Source: a virus (Duplodnaviria > Heunggongvirae > Uroviricota > Caudoviricetes). Taken from it: a stretch of DNA of 41,372 nucleotides. Shown here in pieces: positions 5,026 to 37,686 of the stretch. The notes beneath the pieces are model-generated. The model did not search any database. It was not told the origin of the DNA and saw only the letters and a list, made by a program, of their open reading frames with translations. Within the stretch, counting starts at the first letter, position 1. Each line of letters starts with the position of its first letter. Made by a program: the position numbers and the translations under genes. The stretch is from positions 1 through 41,372 of IMG/VR virus record IMGVR_UViG_2778261576_000004; one strand, written 5' to 3'.

Positions 5026-5102
5026 TTACCGTTGAGGTAATAATTATGCGTATATGGTTTGATGTCAATAGATATGAGTTAAAAAAATTACCCGTTAGGT
5101 AA
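5026..5102. promoter_or_regulatory. OL-like operator region: two TTACC-N5-GGTAA palindromes (5026-5040, 5088-5102)
   Basis: Two perfect 15-bp palindromes in the intergenic region between the repressor gene and the first leftward early gene. Confidence 0.5.
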
Positions 5103-5159: not shown

Positions 5160-5744
5160 TTATTGTTTGTTTTTTTCGTTCTGGTTGATGACAAATTCAA
5201 TGTAACTTTCGATCTTTGCTTTCTCGGTTTCGGGTAACAATGCGTAGCGCGAGCGATCATAGTTGATGGTCGCAGGGTCGTGCGGGTGAATCAGTAATTC
5301 ATAGCCGTGACGCCCGAATGCGGATGCAACATTCTCCAGGGTGGAAATGGAAACGCTGACCTCATTGTTTAACAGGCGGCTGATTGTCACCTGGGCTACG
5401 CCGGATGCGCGGTGAAGTTTTCCCTGTGTTGAAAGGTCGCGGCTTTCGCTCATCCAGCGTTCCAGGTTGTGAGCCGCCAGCTGGCCAATGTCGCTTGGGC
5501 CGACAGGCTGAAAACCTTCCTGAGAAAGCGAGCGATCGATATCAAGCCAGTTACGGGGTTTATTGGCGGCAGCTTCAATTTTTCGCGCAACCTGATCGCC
5601 GATAACCTTCTTACCAAGAGCCCAGCGGTTTACCAGATTTGCCTGAGTTCCAAGTTTTTCAGCCATCCGCGTCTGAACACCATTGAATTCACGGTCGATC
5701 AAGTCGTTGAGATTTTGCCTGCGGACGTCCTGGATACTTTTCAT
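5160..5744 (-). CDS. Putative prophage repressor (CI-like, tandem HTH, no S24 peptidase domain recognisable)
   Basis: 194 aa; two HTH-like segments (GVQTRMAEKLGTQANLVNRW and GVAQVTISRLLNNE); sits between OL-like and OR-like palindrome pairs, divergent from a Cro-like gene. Confidence 0.55.
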   Translation of the reverse strand: MKSIQDVRRQNLNDLIDREFNGVQTRMAEKLGTQANLVNRWALGKKVIGDQVARKIEAAANKPRNWLDIDRSLSQEGFQPVGPSDIGQLAAHNLERWMSESRDLSTQGKLHRASGVAQVTISRLLNNEVSVSISTLENVASAFGRHGYELLIHPHDPATINYDRSRYALLPETEKAKIESYIEFVINQNEKNKQ

Positions 5745-16686: not shown

Positions 16687-16763
16687 TGGCGTGGCATGCA
16701 GGATTCGAACCTGCGACCAACCGCTTAGAAGGCGGTTGCTCTGTCCGACTGAGCTAATGCCAC
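16687..16763 (-). tRNA. tRNA-Arg (anticodon UCU)
   Basis: Minus strand folds by hand into a cloverleaf: acceptor GTGGCAT/ATGCCAC, D-arm GCTC/GAGC, anticodon stem ACCGC/GCGGT with loop CTTCTAA, T-arm GCAGG-TTCGAAT-CCTGC, encoded CCA. Confidence 0.85.
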
Positions 16764-17085: not shown

Positions 17086-17165
17086 TTACCTGAAAGGTAA
17101 TAATTCACGCGTTAAATGTCAACCTTCTACGATAAATAAATCATATGTGGTTAAATTGGTAATAA
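17086..17165. promoter_or_regulatory. Palindrome (17086-17100) plus TATGTGGTT box (17144-17152) and GGTAATA (17159-17165) upstream of the portal operon
   Basis: Same arrangement as upstream of the tailspike gene (35438-35502). Confidence 0.45.
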
Positions 17166-33862: not shown

Positions 33863-34030
33863 CTATTTGGAGCGAAATGCCGCCTTGAAGTCGCTGAAAG
33901 ATGTTCCTGTCTGGTAAACCATATCCTTGTCGCGCTCTTTGCTTGCGCGGCCAAGCATAACTTTTCCAATGACATCCCAGCATTGCTTGGCTTGTTCATT
34001 GTGCTGAGTACGATTTTTCAACGCTGTCAT
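33863..34030 (-). CDS. Hypothetical small protein (55 aa)
   Basis: ATG 34030 with a strong AAGGAGG SD 6 nt upstream and a palindrome copy directly 5' of it; translation MTALKNRTQHNEQAKQCWDVIGKVMLGRASKERDKDMVYQTGTSFSDFKAAFRSK. Confidence 0.4.
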   Translation of the reverse strand: MTALKNRTQHNEQAKQCWDVIGKVMLGRASKERDKDMVYQTGTSFSDFKAAFRSK

Positions 34031-34042
34031 ATCGCGCCTCCT

Positions 34043-34057
34043 TTACCTTTAAGGTAA
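34043..34057. promoter_or_regulatory. TTACC-N5-GGTAA palindrome at the 5' end of the small-gene cassette
   Basis: Perfect TTACCTTTAAGGTAA abutting the SD; upstream on the minus strand are a TTGCAG -35-like and TACTAT -10-like hexamer with 17-bp spacing. Confidence 0.4.
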
Positions 34058-34129
34058 TAGTACGCTATTCACCCACAGTCTGCAATCTGTACAGAATTAT
34101 TTAAAGGCACATCCCTGTGCCGCCGCCCG

Positions 34130-34786
34130 TCAGAAGAACCCAGCCTTGTCGTTGATGTACTCCGCGTGGGTCTGGATATCACGCAGGCATTTGCTCACAC
34201 CAACAATGTAGCAGAACATGGTGGTCAGCTCCGCCGCCGCACCCGATACGTCGTGCCCGTCTTCCTGTAACTGGTTCAGCAGATTCATCAGCAGTGAGTT
34301 CTCCGTCAGGCCGAGAACACCAGACGGCGAATGAATCAGGCTACGGTAGCCGGGCTTCAGTGGGGCGCTGTATTCTTTTTTGTCTTCCAGCTTGATCGCC
34401 TCCATAATGGCGGGCATGAAGCCTGACAAGACCTTCTCCACTTTTGTTTCTTGTTGTCTTAAACGTTTCTCGCATTCAATGAAGTAGCGTCGCACCTGGC
34501 GACCTTTTTCGTTACGCTCGACCATCGCCAGCTCTTTGGCTGTATCAAGGGTGAGGTGGTACTCTTTGCGGTTGTGGCCGCCTCTACCAGATGTTTGCTT
34601 TCCCAAATTGGAAAGCAAAATATAGTCTTGATTTTCAATGAATTCGTATTCTGATATGCGATTTGTAATCCATGCTGCAAACACCTTTTTAACACCTAAA
34701 AAAGCGTGCAGATCGCGGGCATTACAAAGTAGGGCTGTTTCGTTAGATATAGTGCCGTTGAATACGGGGATGAGTTGAGCGTTCAT
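34130..34786 (-). CDS. Phage antirepressor (AntA/AntB-type N-terminal domain)
   Basis: N-terminus [38 protein letters not shown] matches the AntA pattern as recalled; C-terminal domain shared with the 35104-35361 product; GGAGA SD. Confidence 0.7.
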
Positions 34787-35103
34787 GATGGCGTCTCCAC
34801 TTAGCGAATTACATCACCACCGCTGAGACCAATCAGATGGTGGTGAACTGAACGGAGTTGGTCTTACCGGCCTAAGTGGTACCGGCGTCCTTTCGGACCC
34901 CCATTCAGCCCACCATAATTCTGGCATGACTGTGCTATACGCATAAAAAAACCACGTCTGGCGTGGTATGCGCCACTTAGTAATCCGGGAGACCAATCCC
35001 GGCACTGGATTTTGCCAGTGCCCGATTACTATGGCACAAGAGGAGTGCGATGTAAATTTACCGCAAAGGTAAATATAAGCACTCCTTTTGGTAATTGCAA
35101 ACC
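34787..35103 (-). other. Structured non-coding leader/spacer with intrinsic terminator
   Basis: Several perfect hairpins (e.g. CCGGGA-GACCAA-TCCCGG, CACTGG-ATTTTG-CCAGTG), a minus-strand terminator (CCACG-CCAGA-CGTGG then T7) near 34943-34964, and a palindrome copy (35058-35072) nested in an 8-bp stem (AGGAGTGC/GCACTCCT). Confidence 0.4.
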
Positions 35104-35361
35104 TTATCTGGTTTGTTTACGTAATTGTTCGGCACAATAGTCGAGATGTGTTTGCAGATCCCGCATAGACATCTGTGAGCTGGTGACGTAGTTAATCAGT
35201 GCAGTCAGTTCGGCAAGTGGGCCATCGACATTAAATCCATCCTTATCGAGCTCCCGGAGTAATTTCATCAAGTGCGATCCCTCCACCAGTGATCTGACGC
35301 CTCCCGGCGTGTGAATCCTTTCGGTAAATCCGTCTTCCAGTGGATAGTGATACTGCTGCAT
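35104..35361 (-). CDS. Small protein homologous to the antirepressor C-terminal domain
   Basis: ...TPGGVRSLVEGSHLMKLLRELDKDGFNVDGPLAELTALINYV... aligns by eye with ...[42 protein letters not shown]... of the antirepressor; ATG 35361 with GGAGAA SD (ORF-track TTG at 35379). Confidence 0.45.
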   Translation of the reverse strand: MQQYHYPLEDGFTERIHTPGGVRSLVEGSHLMKLLRELDKDGFNVDGPLAELTALINYVTSSQMSMRDLQTHLDYCAEQLRKQTR

Positions 35362-35437
35362 CTTATCTTCTCCATGCAATAACTGTATATTTATACAGTA
35401 TCAAATAATTTGTTTGCTATCCAGCACGTTTTGAAAA

Positions 35438-35502
35438 TTACCTGAAAGGTAATATATATTCGTATTTACAGCCTTTCTATCCATATGTGGTTTTACAGGT
35501 AA
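35438..35502. promoter_or_regulatory. Palindrome (35438-35452) plus TATGTGGTT box (35484-35492) and GGTAATA in the divergent region upstream of the tailspike gene
   Basis: TTACCTGAAAGGTAA is identical to the copy upstream of the portal operon. Confidence 0.45.
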
Positions 35503-35556
35503 TAGAATAACCAGATATGCGGCGCAACGGGTGCTGCGACTATCTGGAGATTTAAC

Positions 35557-37686
35557 ATGACGGTCTCAACCGAAGTTGACCACAACGAATACACAGGTAA
35601 CGGCGTTACGACATCGTTTCCGTATACTTTTCGAATTTTCAGAAAATCAGACCTGGTTGTTCAGGTGTCTGACCTGAACGGGAACGTAACAGAATTGGTC
35701 CTGGATACCGGTTATACGGTAACTGGGGCGGGCACTTATAGTGGCGGTTCTGTGGTTCTTCCGTCTCCTCTTGCTGCTGGCTGGCGAATTACGATAGATC
35801 GTGTGCTTGATGTAGTGCAGGAGACAGACCTTCGCAATCAGGGAAAATTTTTCCCCGAAGTGCATGAAGATGCTTTTGACTACCTGACGATGCTGATCCA
35901 GCAATGTTTTGGGTGGTTCAGACGTGCATTGATGAAACCATCTTTGCTTGCAAAATATTACGATGCAAAGCAAAACAGAATTTCTAACCTTGCAGATCCA
36001 TCACTTGAGCTTGACGCTGTAAATAATCGCTCAATGCGTAATTATGTCGATGCTGCAATCGCCGGGGTTGTTGGTGGTTTTGGTTGGTTTATTCAGTATG
36101 GTTCTGGGGCAGTATACCGAACGTTCCAGGATAAGATGAGAGACACCATTAGTGTTCGTGATTTTGGTGCAAAAGGAGACGGCATAACAGATGATACTGT
36201 AGCAATTCAAAATGCTATTAATGCAGTACCAGAAGGGGCTATACTTGGATTTTATGGTGGTGAATTTGTTTTTGATAAGGTTGAATTGTTTAAGCCAATA
36301 ACATTAGTTGGTGATGCAACGTTAATTCACAACGGATTTAGAATAAAATCTAGCAGAATCCGATCGCTTTTATCTGGCGTTCAGAAATGCAAGGATTACT
36401 CCGAGTCTTCAAGAGCATTTTATTGCTATGCAAATGAAGACCAAAGAGATTATGACGATATTCAGATTTTATTTAATAGATTTGAAGGTTTCTTTTACTC
36501 TACGGCATTTGTTGCAAAAAACTATTATTTGGAGAATGACCCTAATTCAAGAACTGTCAAAAACACAAAAGTAATAGGGTGTACATCAGTTGCTCCTGAT
36601 TCTGTAAATGCCGGTCATTTTCAACATATAGGCGTTACAAATGCTGAAACATCACATAACTCAACTTATGGCGGACAAAATGCAACATCATACAACTTCA
36701 TTAACCAGAATGGATTTGTAAGGATTATAGGAAATTATGACCATAACAATAGCTATGGTTCATGTGAGCTTGAGAACTCAATGGTGAGCAACTCAGTTAT
36801 ATCAGGTAATACGTTTTCGTCATATTTATGGGTGGATGATACAAGTAATGTTACTATTTCTGGAAATACCGTTTCATCAAGGATCAAAGTAACATCGCAA
36901 ACTGACGATGTTCATAATATAACCATATCAGCAAATACCACAAAACGGATTACTATAGAGCAATTTGGAGAATCTCCGACAGGTCTGGTATATGGTGCAT
37001 TAATTTCCTGTAACACTATTACTGGCGACAGTGATGGAAGTTCAGACATTTTATGTACGTCACTTGTTACAGGTGAGATTTCATCAAATTATTGTCATGG
37101 ATCAGAAAAAAATATATCAATTGTCCGCCTGGATTCTTCTGATATAACTGTTAGAAACAATAAAGGAAACAAAGGATTACTTACAATAAGTAACGATGGT
37201 GGAAGGATAATTGAATATGGCAATGATTCTATGGTTCTGTCTGGAAGCATAGATAGCAGACATATACATAATTTATTACATCCAGACACATCGTATTTAG
37301 ATCTACCGGGGAAATATCTGCACGGAACTAAATATACTGGCAGTATCCCCCCCGGTTCCACAGGAACTGTATCACTTCAAATACCATCAGGGGCAAGCCT
37401 TGTTTTCAGGGGTGTTTCTATATGGGTTCTAATTAGAGATGTTAGCAATAACAATATATCGTCATTCAGAATTGATGGTTCATATAGAGTTGTTGGTGGA
37501 AGTGTTGGTCTTAGTTTTGCTGATGCTTATTCGAAACTCGGGGTGGATGCAAACTCTATAACAGTGTCAAACAATAACAGCACTTCTGACAATATCAGCA
37601 TAGCAATTAAAAACACAGATTCATCAAAAACCCTTCAGGTTACTGTTATGCCGGAGGTTTCAAGCAGGTTAGGTATTGAGGAATAG
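35557..37686 (+). CDS. Tailspike/tail fiber with T7 gp17-like N-terminal adaptor and pectate-lyase-like beta-helix domain
   Basis: N-terminal 130 aa resembles the gp17 tail-attachment domain as recalled; VRDFGAKGDGITDDTVAIQNAI is the signature start of right-handed beta-helix depolymerases; C-terminal two-thirds are AT-rich. Confidence 0.8.
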   Translation: MTVSTEVDHNEYTGNGVTTSFPYTFRIFRKSDLVVQVSDLNGNVTELVLDTGYTVTGAGTYSGGSVVLPSPLAAGWRITIDRVLDVVQETDLRNQGKFFPEVHEDAFDYLTMLIQQCFGWFRRALMKPSLLAKYYDAKQNRISNLADPSLELDAVNNRSMRNYVDAAIAGVVGGFGWFIQYGSGAVYRTFQDKMRDTISVRDFGAKGDGITDDTVAIQNAINAVPEGAILGFYGGEFVFDKVELFKPITLVGDATLIHNGFRIKSSRIRSLLSGVQKCKDYSESSRAFYCYANEDQRDYDDIQILFNRFEGFFYSTAFVAKNYYLENDPNSRTVKNTKVIGCTSVAPDSVNAGHFQHIGVTNAETSHNSTYGGQNATSYNFINQNGFVRIIGNYDHNNSYGSCELENSMVSNSVISGNTFSSYLWVDDTSNVTISGNTVSSRIKVTSQTDDVHNITISANTTKRITIEQFGESPTGLVYGALISCNTITGDSDGSSDILCTSLVTGEISSNYCHGSEKNISIVRLDSSDITVRNNKGNKGLLTISNDGGRIIEYGNDSMVLSGSIDSRHIHNLLHPDTSYLDLPGKYLHGTKYTGSIPPGSTGTVSLQIPSGASLVFRGVSIWVLIRDVSNNNISSFRIDGSYRVVGGSVGLSFADAYSKLGVDANSITVSNNNSTSDNISIAIKNTDSSKTLQVTVMPEVSSRLGIEE

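Follow-up and report, generated by a model that had tools for sequence, protein, structure and literature searches.

A putative P1 c4/Gifsy-1 IsrK-type RNA control module ahead of the antirepressor gene of an epsilon15/phiV10-like prophage

Flanking genes and promoter region

The window (the whole stretch of DNA analyzed, 41,372 nt) contains a 317-nt spacer on the minus strand (34787–35103) between two genes. The downstream gene, ant (34130–34786, minus strand), encodes a 218-aa antirepressor with an AntA N-terminal domain (Pfam PF08346, 4e-26) and was matched by phrog_377 'anti-repressor Ant' (3e-66). The upstream gene is a small ORF of 85 aa (35104–35361, minus strand) that starts at ATG 35361 behind the Shine-Dalgarno (SD) sequence GGAGAAG (35373–35367); with the alternative start of the ORF listing, TTG 35379, its product has 91 aa. 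The small ORF reproduces the C-terminal domain of Ant as a separate protein, with 45% identity to the C-terminal 78 residues (Ant 134–210, E = 2e-17), and was matched by phrog_450 (3e-48) and phrog_1760 'anti-repressor' (4e-7). Its homologue in phiV10 is p24, of 85 aa. NCBIfam gave no name for either flanking protein. An earlier note, made from the sequence without database searches, had described both as antirepressor-family genes, which is reasonable given these matches. In phage ZX5, an unrelated antirepressor is encoded at the same position and its overexpression promotes lytic growth (PMC9782041).

A LexA (SOS) box, CTGTATAAATATACAG, was predicted by consensus upstream of the small ORF and outside the spacer (35383–35398, minus strand), and CTGT-N8-ACAG is present at the equivalent place in phiV10, ZX5 and Tyrion. 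LexA may bind at this site, and the small ORF may be under SOS control.

At the end of the spacer nearest the small ORF, an 8-bp stem (35041–35086, minus strand) is formed by AGGAGTGC (35086–35079) and GCACTCCT (35048–35041) and encloses the palindrome ATTTACC-TTTGC-GGTAAAT (35074–35056, no strand assigned), as the earlier note had reported. The stem was considered as a terminator for the small ORF and was rejected, since it is not followed by a U-run; no minus-strand terminator-like site was found between 35104 and 35021. The palindrome is 1 of 13 TTACC-N5-GGTAA sites in the window (20 strand matches with ≤2 mismatches, 0.66 expected), and two of the others lie between the divergently oriented repressor and cro-like genes. 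Its distance to isrK is constant in 7/7 epsilon15-type loci, with invariant arms and a variable centre. It is a candidate operator for the prophage repressor, a 194-aa HTH protein encoded at 5160–5744.

A predicted isrK promoter (35028–35056, minus strand) consists of a −35 element (TTTACA, 35056–35051) abutting the palindrome, a 17-nt spacer and an extended −10 element (TG-C-CATAGT, 35036–35028). The promoter probably carries a prophage-repressor operator, to which the repressor would bind. The −10 ends 7 nt before position 1 of the Rfam isrK model, with a predicted start at G35021, and a −10-like hexamer is present at the same distance before isrK in 17/17 loci examined, with differing sequences. 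Upstream of it, a second promoter-like site (TTGCAA-17-TATATT, 35072–35100, minus strand) was called by consensus scan only; its −10 overlaps the palindrome, and its sequence is kept in phiV10 and ZX5.

RNA genes and the ant leader

The minus strand of the spacer is non-coding and strongly structured. Its minimum free energy was −131.8 kcal/mol, compared with −95.5 ± 4.8 kcal/mol for 100 dinucleotide shuffles (z = −7.55; 0/100 as good), in keeping with the strong structure noticed earlier. Because the plus strand folds almost equally well (z = −7.0), the strand was set by the terminator U-run and the Rfam matches. In the Rfam search, which the earlier note had suggested, two families were found above gathering score, isrK (RF01394) and C4 antisense RNA (RF01695); besides these and c4-a1b1, no further family, sar included, was matched on either strand at E ≤ 1. 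The earlier proposal of a regulatory leader or attenuator, or else a small RNA gene, was broadly right on both counts, as there are two RNA genes and ant lies behind the IsrK terminator; the leader is of a known kind. A tRNA or tmRNA in the spacer was rejected, the sole call by ARAGORN being a tRNA-Arg at 16687–16763. The only ORF longer than 60 aa across the spacer (34814–35005, GTG start, 63 aa) overlaps both RNA genes. Homologous loci are separated by 1- and 2-nt indels within this region (alignment A1), and the ORF was rejected as coding on account of these frame-breaking indels, which bears out the earlier view that the spacer has no convincing ORF.

The IsrK sRNA, or c4-a1b1 element (34945–35021, minus strand, 77 nt), scored 67.7 bits against a gathering score of 50, with model positions 1–77 covered and the terminator included. 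The c4-a1b1 family itself (RF03163) scored 39.9 bits at 35034–34982, below its gathering score of 46.7 (E = 1.8e-8). IsrK is composed of hairpin 1 (35021–35002), in which compensatory changes were seen at 4/5 predicted pairs, hairpin 2 (35001–34986), a single-stranded stretch and the terminator (34967–34945). The terminator has a 6-bp stem (34967–34951, 4 G-C, loop of 5) followed by U7 ending at 34945, and was found independently of Rfam by a terminator scan. It lies 159–181 nt from ATG 34786, where a minus-strand intrinsic terminator about 160 nt before the ant start had been noted. As it stands between the promoter and C4/ant, ant would be reachable by read-through only. Two sites were mapped within IsrK: a1 (UUGGUCU, 34990–34996) in the loop of hairpin 2, and b1 (CUAAGUGG, 34973–34980) in the single-stranded stretch. 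In 16/17 fetched phage loci, isrK is located 19–28 nt upstream of C4.

The C4 antisense RNA (34836–34920, minus strand, Rfam extent) scored 61.2 bits against a gathering score of 45, with model positions 1–87 fully covered. Its single-sequence fold (−41.2 kcal/mol) has a long closing stem around two hairpins. Two-sided changes were seen in the first inner hairpin and in the upper closing stem, in up to 10/18 loci; no covariation was found in the basal 7 bp or the second inner hairpin (18 loci). Segment b' (CCACUUAG, 34872–34879) forms the loop of the second internal hairpin, and segment a' (AGACCAA, 34858–34864) is the unpaired junction 3' of it. By alignment with the 77-nt P1 c4, both placed on the RF01695 model, mature C4 is predicted to extend from 34914 to 34839 (76 nt). 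RNase P would cleave after AU in AU/GGUGGG, leaving a 3' ...CACCACC tail. An acceptor-like stem followed by CCA (...CACCA/CCAUC) is kept in 16/18 loci of the alignment.

The ant leader contains a second pair of sites, a2 (UUGGUCU, 34826–34832, minus strand) and b2 (CUAAGUGG, 34797–34804, minus strand), of which b2 overlaps the ant SD (GGAG, 34798–34795). Between a2 and b2 lies a conserved box, GGUGGUGA (34814–34821, minus strand), complementary in sequence to UCACCACC (34846–34839), which forms the 3' arm of the basal stem of C4. Pairing of the box with the 3' arm gives an alternative hairpin that places a2 in its loop and is predicted in 18/18 loci (−12.9 to −20.0 kcal/mol). The P1 box is out of register in the column alignment, so its helix was judged by single-sequence folds; on this weaker evidence, P1 has a different but complementary pair, CUGCC with GGUAG. 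The primary transcript may adopt states that a simple model ignores.

Complementarity and covariation across phages

In the window, b' is exactly complementary to b1 and to b2 (8/8 each) and a' to a1 and to a2 (7/7 each); multiplying the four single-site shuffle frequencies gives ~3e-10. The b 8-mer, CUAAGUGG, occurs in the 41-kb window only as b1, as b2 and as the complement of b'.

The a and b sites covary three ways across phages. Among 19 loci including P1, 6 a-type and 13 b-type specificities were distinguished, each changing jointly at all three positions; in phiV10, the a/b specificity is UUGGCGU/CUAAAAGG. Across 18 loci, a1-a' was 99.2% paired and a'-a2 was 97.6% paired, with changes on both sides at 5/7 pairs for each. 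The covariation score for a1-a' and a'-a2 was reached by 0/500 shuffles, and slid controls were 25–51% paired. For the b sites, loops were out of register in the MAFFT alignment, which was therefore unusable for pair counts, and a gapless search was made locus by locus. With the exception of IdasGreatGrand, whose best match falls just within the CDS, all loci have b2 at or next to the ribosome-binding site (RBS) or start codon. Structure is thus clearly conserved in homologues: folding with covariation analysis, another of the earlier suggestions, showed both structure and intermolecular pairing to covary in 18 other loci. Related phages display numerous different a/b combinations, as would fit immunity specificity classes.

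Comparison with known systems and proposed mechanism

The P1/P7 immI c4 RNA (RF01695, RF03163), which controls icd-ant, has the same RNA family and fold, with a' and b' at equal model positions. The order of elements in P1 immI (operator at −35, a1, b1, c4, a2, b2, start codon) is that of the window. The spacing from a2 to b2 is 28 nt in the window and 29 nt in P1, and the gap from b2 to the first start codon after it is 10 nt in both. Further shared features are co-transcription of RNA and target (predicted in the window), an operator at the promoter −35 (a candidate in the window) and an antirepressor as the regulated gene; in P1, the a1b1 region is itself similar to isrK (35 bits), down to a terminator-like hairpin. 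Unlike P1, the window has no icd, and b2 covers the RBS of ant itself. The a and b sequences differ from those of P1, giving a new specificity, and Ant is of a different family (AntA domain). The window phage is an integrated podovirus whereas P1 is a plasmid myovirus, and a LexA-box gene for a copy of the Ant C-terminal domain directly upstream sets the window apart. In P1, c4 RNA represses Ant synthesis (PMC8546580; also annotated in the P1 record).

The Salmonella Gifsy-1 isrK-orf45-anrP locus (IsrK, STnc1160) has an IsrK promoter, a leaky terminator, a processed C4-like RNA and an antirepressor (PMC4825925), the arrangement predicted for the window. There, the ant equivalent is reached by read-through of the IsrK terminator in a subset of transcripts, and IsrK supplied in trans raises anrP translation >100-fold (PMC4825925). 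IsrK of Gifsy-1 pairs with the C4 region through the segments mapped here as a1 and a': in our mapping, the published point mutations G28A and G31A (PMC4825925) fall in a1, and C159U and C162U in a'. Hfq binding by IsrK and trans activation of antirepressor translation are known from Salmonella only (PMC4825925). The published Gifsy-1 model is without the a2/b2 logic of P1, which is supported here by covariation. Gifsy-1 depends on orf45 for translational coupling, the part played in P1 by icd, and only 3 codons of this frame remain in the window: the ORF from the conserved AUG of the C4 5' arm reads AUG GUG GGC UGA, so the Gifsy-1 coupling step cannot operate, and the next in-frame AUG gives 11 codons. 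Rfam gave no isrJ match downstream in the window, and there was no sign of an AntQ-type effector. The record of the APSE phages of Hamiltonella (LR794147) already carries annotations for isrK, C4 and putative a' and b', with a BRO-family gene downstream. APSE fits the same covariation pattern and differs from the window in phage lineage and specificity. A distant DNA polymerase gene was proposed by the APSE authors as an extra C4 target, whereas no second a+b target was found in the 41-kb window.

Taken with the family matches, the P1-like layout and the covariation, these likenesses make it highly probable that the spacer is a P1 c4/Gifsy-1 IsrK-type (immI-type) RNA control module in an epsilon15/phiV10-like (Uetakevirus) prophage. 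A module of this kind is already known, and its mechanism is not new; in epsilon15/phiV10-like prophages it is unannotated.

A purely cis-acting transcription attenuator, in which the terminator at 34967–34945 gates ant through alternative leader folds with no trans-acting RNA, was the main idea of the earlier note and was also considered. The terminator does lie between the promoter and ant, RNAalifold gave mutually exclusive leader helices, and only a subset of Gifsy-1 transcripts reads through (PMC4825925). An attenuator of this type would, however, leave unexplained why two C4 segments covary with paired sites flanking C4, one of which falls on the RBS, and why the segment matches C4, a family with a trans-acting member in P1. 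We consider it unlikely as a full account, and attenuation fits better as one part of the module than as a competing explanation.

In P4, a processed RNA (CI) lies between flanking complementary sites (seqA/seqC), as C4 is predicted to do here, and transcription of replication genes is terminated prematurely; the effect proposed here is RBS occlusion of an antirepressor gene. A mainly terminating action of C4 and its flanking sites, in place of a translational block, would have a parallel in P1, where Rho-dependent polarity on ant follows from the block on icd translation. The authors of the Gifsy-1 study regard IsrK as structurally homologous to P4 seqA and raised the possibility of termination for STnc1160 (PMC4825925). 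Against this, b2 overlaps the ant SD and is at or beside the RBS or start codon in all but one sampled locus, which fits a translational block; moreover, constitutive STnc1160 in Gifsy-1 failed to lessen IsrK-mediated growth arrest, which became more pronounced (PMC4825925). Premature termination as the main outcome is therefore quite improbable, and the two modes are not mutually exclusive.

The earlier note had compared the spacer to the P22 immI region with its sar RNA, and the two are alike, on the proposed reading, in that a temperate podovirus uses a small RNA to limit expression of an antirepressor gene located close to its tailspike gene. P22 sar is an opposite-strand transcript across the arc-ant junction, and ant is also under the control of the Mnt and Arc proteins. 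In the window, both RNAs are on the strand of ant and act, if at all, through short dispersed complementary segments, so that the analogy fails; the Rfam search (E ≤ 1) showed no sequence or structural relationship between sar and the window RNAs. A sar-like antisense RNA from the plus strand across the ant RBS would find support in the good folding of that strand, a property that the complement of any structured RNA shares. The terminator U-run and both family matches are nevertheless on the minus strand, a scan of 34000–35700 gave no plus-strand promoter-like site in the spacer, and the sole plus-strand terminator-like site is at its very edge (35128–35145), continuing into the small ORF. 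With the wrong strand and no family match, this candidate was rejected as having almost no likelihood.

Equally, it is hardly credible that the segment encodes small proteins (orf45/Icd-like or an 'Ash family' peptide): 'Ash family protein' CDSs are called over the region in ZX5 and Hafnia phage yong2, and orf45 is translated in Gifsy-1 (PMC4825925), but the early stop of the orf45 equivalent and the frame-breaking 1–2-nt indels among homologues led to its rejection as coding, and the variation is compensatory at the RNA level. The 'Ash family protein' calls in some phage records may accordingly be translations of an RNA gene.

Under the immI-type reading, transcription would begin at the extended −10 promoter whose −35 abuts the candidate repressor operator. 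Most transcripts would stop at the intrinsic terminator to give the 77-nt IsrK, and read-through would yield RNAs that span C4 and the ant mRNA. If P1 is a guide, RNase P would excise C4 (~76 nt) from the read-through transcript, after which its exposed segments would bind the ant leader, b' at b2 and a' at a2. Pairing at b2 would cover part of the ant SD, so that ribosomes would be excluded and the antirepressor not made. The block would operate in cis in the lysogen and, as the P1 experiments suggest, in trans against an incoming phage that shares its specificity. IsrK, with a1 and b1 as identical copies of the target sites, could pair with C4 as a decoy; in Gifsy-1 the block is thereby relieved. 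The role of a1/b1 is incompletely understood even in the Gifsy-1 model system. There, basal anrP translation increases when a1 is mutated in cis, an effect not expected if the sites served purely as a decoy.

A wider scheme, in which the classical C4 lock has been simplified in this phage lineage and receives two extra inputs, can be put forward only tentatively. First, the prophage repressor would shut the isrK-C4-ant promoter through 1 of its 13 dispersed operators, resembling C1 of P1. Second, the upstream gene, under LexA control and with no terminator before isrK, would send transcripts carrying a1/b1 into the module upon DNA damage, and these would titrate C4. If true, this would join the SOS response to antirepressor translation via an RNA decoy. 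Third, C4 would act directly on the ant RBS without an icd/orf45 relay. Fourth, the box GGUGGUGA, by competing for the C4 3' arm, may serve as a folding switch between the precursor and processed states; no prior description of the box was found in the literature examined.

An unannotated 317-nt gap can thereby be assigned to two named RNA genes whose function can be tested, and a P1-type RNA lock on antirepressor synthesis, its function argued from P1 and Gifsy-1, would extend to epsilon15/phiV10-like podoviruses. From the a/b site sequences one could also guess which prophages repress one another's antirepressors. Within the epsilon15/phiV10-like group, O157 typing phages matched the segment. 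The same spacer is present in 467 of 5,426 complete E. coli genomes, and the RefSeq annotation there shows the flanking CDSs only; in E. coli IAI39 the segment is 99.4% identical.

RNA families in the spacer upstream of ant

The window is an epsilon15/phiV10-like (Uetakevirus) prophage, and its locus was 99% identical to that of Escherichia phage phiv142-3. The 317-nt spacer (34787-35103) separates two minus-strand genes: ant (34786-34130; 218 aa; Pfam AntA domain, 4e-26; phrog_377 'anti-repressor Ant', 3e-66) and a small upstream ORF (35361-35104), for which ATG 35361 was the most likely predicted start, giving 85 aa as in its phiV10 homologue. The small-ORF protein shared 45% identity with residues 134-210 of Ant (E = 2e-17) and was therefore taken to be a stand-alone version of its C-terminal domain.

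The minus-strand spacer folded at -131.8 kcal/mol, whereas shuffled sequences gave -95.5 +/- 4.8 (z = -7.55). The earlier note had described the spacer as highly structured, and every feature it listed was present, including the minus-strand intrinsic terminator (stem 34967-34951, then U7), which precedes the ant ATG by ~160 nt, and the 8-bp stem (35086-35079 with 35048-35041, minus strand) enclosing the palindrome ATTTACC-TTTGC-GGTAAAT. Its view that no convincing ORF is present also held: a 63-aa ORF across the spacer was rejected as not credible, because 1-2-nt indels disrupt its frame in homologues. The plus strand gave a nearly equal fold, as is expected for the complement of a structured RNA; strand was therefore set from the terminator U-run and the Rfam matches.

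The window was scanned against Rfam, as the earlier note had proposed, and rescanned permissively. Within the spacer, two minus-strand families exceeded their gathering scores: isrK (RF01394; 35021-34945; 67.7 bits, gathering score 50), with the terminator inside the match, and C4 antisense RNA (RF01695; 34920-34836; 61.2 bits, gathering score 45). The permissive scan added only c4-a1b1 (RF03163, 'a1, b1 targets of C4 antisense RNA'), overlapping isrK at 39.9 bits, below its gathering score of 46.7 (E = 1.8e-8); no other family was matched. The spacer is a regulatory leader holding small RNA genes, as had been suspected, of the P1 c4/IsrK type; the suggested likeness to P22 sar was not borne out, sar being absent from both scans. 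Alignment of the window and P1 C4 sequences to one model predicted a mature C4 of 76 nt (34914-34839).

Both 'c4 antisense RNA' and 'c4-a1b1' are among the motifs listed by Weinberg et al. (PMC2864571), and existing records of APSE phages carry annotations for isrK, C4, a' and b' beside a BRO-family gene. No mention of these RNAs in epsilon15/phiV10-like phages was found in the phage records or literature examined: the phiV10 record marks only a 'terminator' here, and the ZX5 paper treats the repressor and antirepressor and discusses no RNA. A matching segment was present in 467 of 5,426 complete E. coli genomes, where the RefSeq features under it were the flanking CDSs only. 'Ash family protein' CDSs overlie the C4 gene in ZX5 (L002 1704-1817) and yong2 (L006 988-1671), and probably represent the RNA gene translated by annotation pipelines.

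C4 pairing sites and their conservation

C4 was folded as a long closing stem around two hairpins, with b' (CCACUUAG, 34879-34872) in the loop of the second hairpin and a' (AGACCAA, 34864-34858) in the unpaired junction after it (all sites on the minus strand). Exact complements of both segments were found twice. Upstream, in IsrK, a1 (UUGGUCU, 34996-34990) occupies the loop of hairpin 2 and b1 (CUAAGUGG, 34980-34973) a single-stranded stretch; downstream, in the ant leader, are a2 (UUGGUCU, 34832-34826) and b2 (CUAAGUGG, 34804-34797). Part of b2 coincides with the ant Shine-Dalgarno (GGAG, 34798-34795), and 10 nt separate its end from the ATG. Multiplying the individual shuffle frequencies of the four sites gave ~3e-10, and the b 8-mer did not recur in the 41-kb window outside this locus. 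When transcription starts farther upstream than the isrK promoter, the transcript includes the sequence of the -10 region, CCAUAGUAAUC (35024-35038), for which pairing with GAUUACUAAGUGG in the b1 region (34973-34987) was predicted; by this model b1 may be hidden in long transcripts and exposed in IsrK proper.

The locus was compared with those of 17 other phages: phiV10, ZX5, Tyrion, three Klebsiella phages, APSE-7, Hafnia yong2, a Yersinia phage, CP-1639, IdasGreatGrand, phiP27, SW-37, 2H10, Ayreon, 118970_sal3 and an Stx2a phage. C4 was present in 17/17, with isrK 19-28 nt upstream of it in 16/17. With P1 included (19 loci), there were six kinds of a sequence and 13 of b, and a' matched a1 and a2, and b' matched b1 and b2, in every locus; the a/b combination of the window was a specificity absent from the other 18. 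The b2 site lay at or beside the ribosome-binding site or start codon of the next gene (AntA, Bro-N or others), except in IdasGreatGrand, where the best match fell just within the coding sequence. On the alignment, a1-a' was paired at 99.2% and a'-a2 at 97.6% (slid controls, 25-51%), five of seven pairs in each had changed on both sides, and their covariation score was equalled by 0/500 shuffles. Intramolecular covariation was detected in hairpin 1 of IsrK and, within C4, in the first inner hairpin and the upper part of the closing stem. Structure was thus conserved in homologues, RNA stems and a-site pairings both covarying across loci. Both b1 and b2 pair perfectly with b' in the window. In several compared loci (L003, L006, L010, L012-L014, L017 and L018) b1-b' pairing was poorer than b2-b' pairing, with a G-U pair or mismatch, which suggests that C4 pairs preferentially with its mRNA target and less with the decoy.

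Between a2 and b2 is an invariant box (GGUGGUGA, 34821-34814, minus strand) whose sequence complements the 3' arm of the closing stem of C4 (34839-34846), at the same positions in L001-L018. The resulting hairpin, mutually exclusive with the C4 basal stem, would show a2 in its loop; it was predicted in 18/18 loci (-12.9 to -20.0 kcal/mol), with many compensatory changes in the upper stem. P1 has a different complementary pair, CUGCC with GGUAG (single-sequence folds). These predictions suggest alternative folds of the primary transcript, beyond the simple model; no description of this hairpin was found in the literature examined. The start-codon context CA-YY-AUG (34784-34792; columns ~143-152 of alignment A2) was also conserved ahead of genes that are not related to one another. 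RNAalifold pairs it with its complement, the invariant AUGGUGG in the 5' arm of C4; no both-sided change in the alignment supported this pairing.

Comparison with P1 and Gifsy-1

In P1, c4 is reportedly processed from the same transcript that carries its target, and is said by the Schuster laboratory to pair with a2/b2, stopping translation of the first ORF and thus preventing Ant synthesis. The P1 GenBank order begins with Oc4, the operator for C1, which overlaps a -35 element; then come two promoters, a1 (7 nt), b1 (8 nt), the 77-nt c4 RNA, a2 (7 nt), b2 (8 nt) and the icd start codon 10 nt past b2. The window has the same order of elements, an a2-to-b2 spacing of 28 nt (29 in P1) and the same 10-nt gap from b2 to the start codon. 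The P1 a1b1 region matched c4-a1b1 at 51 bits and, below threshold, isrK at 35 bits, terminator-like hairpin included; IsrK was therefore taken as the counterpart of the P1 a1b1 leader. The P1 c4 work is cited in PMC8546580, and the arrangement is also encoded in the P1 record.

In Gifsy-1, transcripts from the isrK promoter mostly stop at the IsrK terminator, a subset reads through into a translationally silent RNA, anrP translation rises >100-fold when IsrK is provided in trans, and STnc1160, a stable RNA produced by processing, is made downstream of IsrK (PMC4825925). The mutations used there were mapped here to a1 (G28A and G31A, in UUGGCGU at IsrK positions 26-32) and to a' (C159U and C162U), so that study had shown a1-a' pairing without naming it. 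By analogy, C4 in the window would block the ant ribosome-binding site, and IsrK, with identical target sites, would compete for C4. P1 and Gifsy-1 have a relay ORF, whereas the window has none: the frame from the conserved AUG in the C4 5' arm reads AUG GUG GGC UGA, and b2 would therefore act on ant directly. In Salmonella phage SW-37 an isrJ sRNA (L011 2017-2091; 101.7 bits) follows the gene under C4 control, as in Gifsy-1; isrJ had no match in the window.

Predicted promoter, candidate operator palindromes and putative LexA box

An extended -10 promoter (TTTACA-17-TG-C-CATAGT, minus strand) was predicted from sequence only, ending 7 nt before IsrK position 1; a -10-like hexamer stood at that same distance from isrK in 17/17 loci examined. 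Directly upstream of the -35 element in seven epsilon15-type loci is the palindrome ATTACC-N5-GGTAAAT, with invariant arms and a variable centre. Its core, TTACC-N5-GGTAA, has 13 dispersed copies in the window (20 strand matches; 0.66 expected), as 15-nt sites at 5026, 5088, 5800, 5848, 6185, 8131, 8193, 13926, 17086, 34043, 35058, 35438 and 38409. Two fall where an HTH repressor gene (5160-5744, minus strand) and a cro-like ORF diverge; others were found at the promoter of isrK, where the small ORF and the tailspike gene diverge, and immediately past the 3' end of ant. The set looks like dispersed operators, as in P1, and the candidate operator at the isrK promoter mirrors the position of Oc4. 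Given the 13 copies, the two between the repressor and cro-like genes and the conservation at the isrK promoter, the palindrome is most simply read as a putative prophage-repressor operator. The likely prophage repressor, encoded at 5160-5744 (194 aa; HTH_3 at residues 106-147), lacks a peptidase S24 domain, and induction would therefore depend on an antirepressor, not self-cleavage. A tRNA-Arg gene (anticodon TCT; 16687-16763, minus strand) also lies within the prophage, ~320 nt from the copy at 17086. The operator region of phiV10 (L001 ~1520-1560, compared with window 35086-35041) forms a perfect palindrome whose arms are 18 bp long; its central 5-mer has the opposite orientation to that in the window, and phiV10 lacks the TTTACA -35 element there.

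Ahead of the small ORF is a near-consensus LexA box (CTGTATAAATATACAG, 35383-35398, minus strand), predicted by its sequence, with conserved counterparts in phiV10, ZX5 and Tyrion; the 85-aa product of the ORF may be a small antirepressor of the Tum type, induced by SOS. No minus-strand terminator was found between the small ORF and isrK, so SOS-induced transcripts would probably enter the module.
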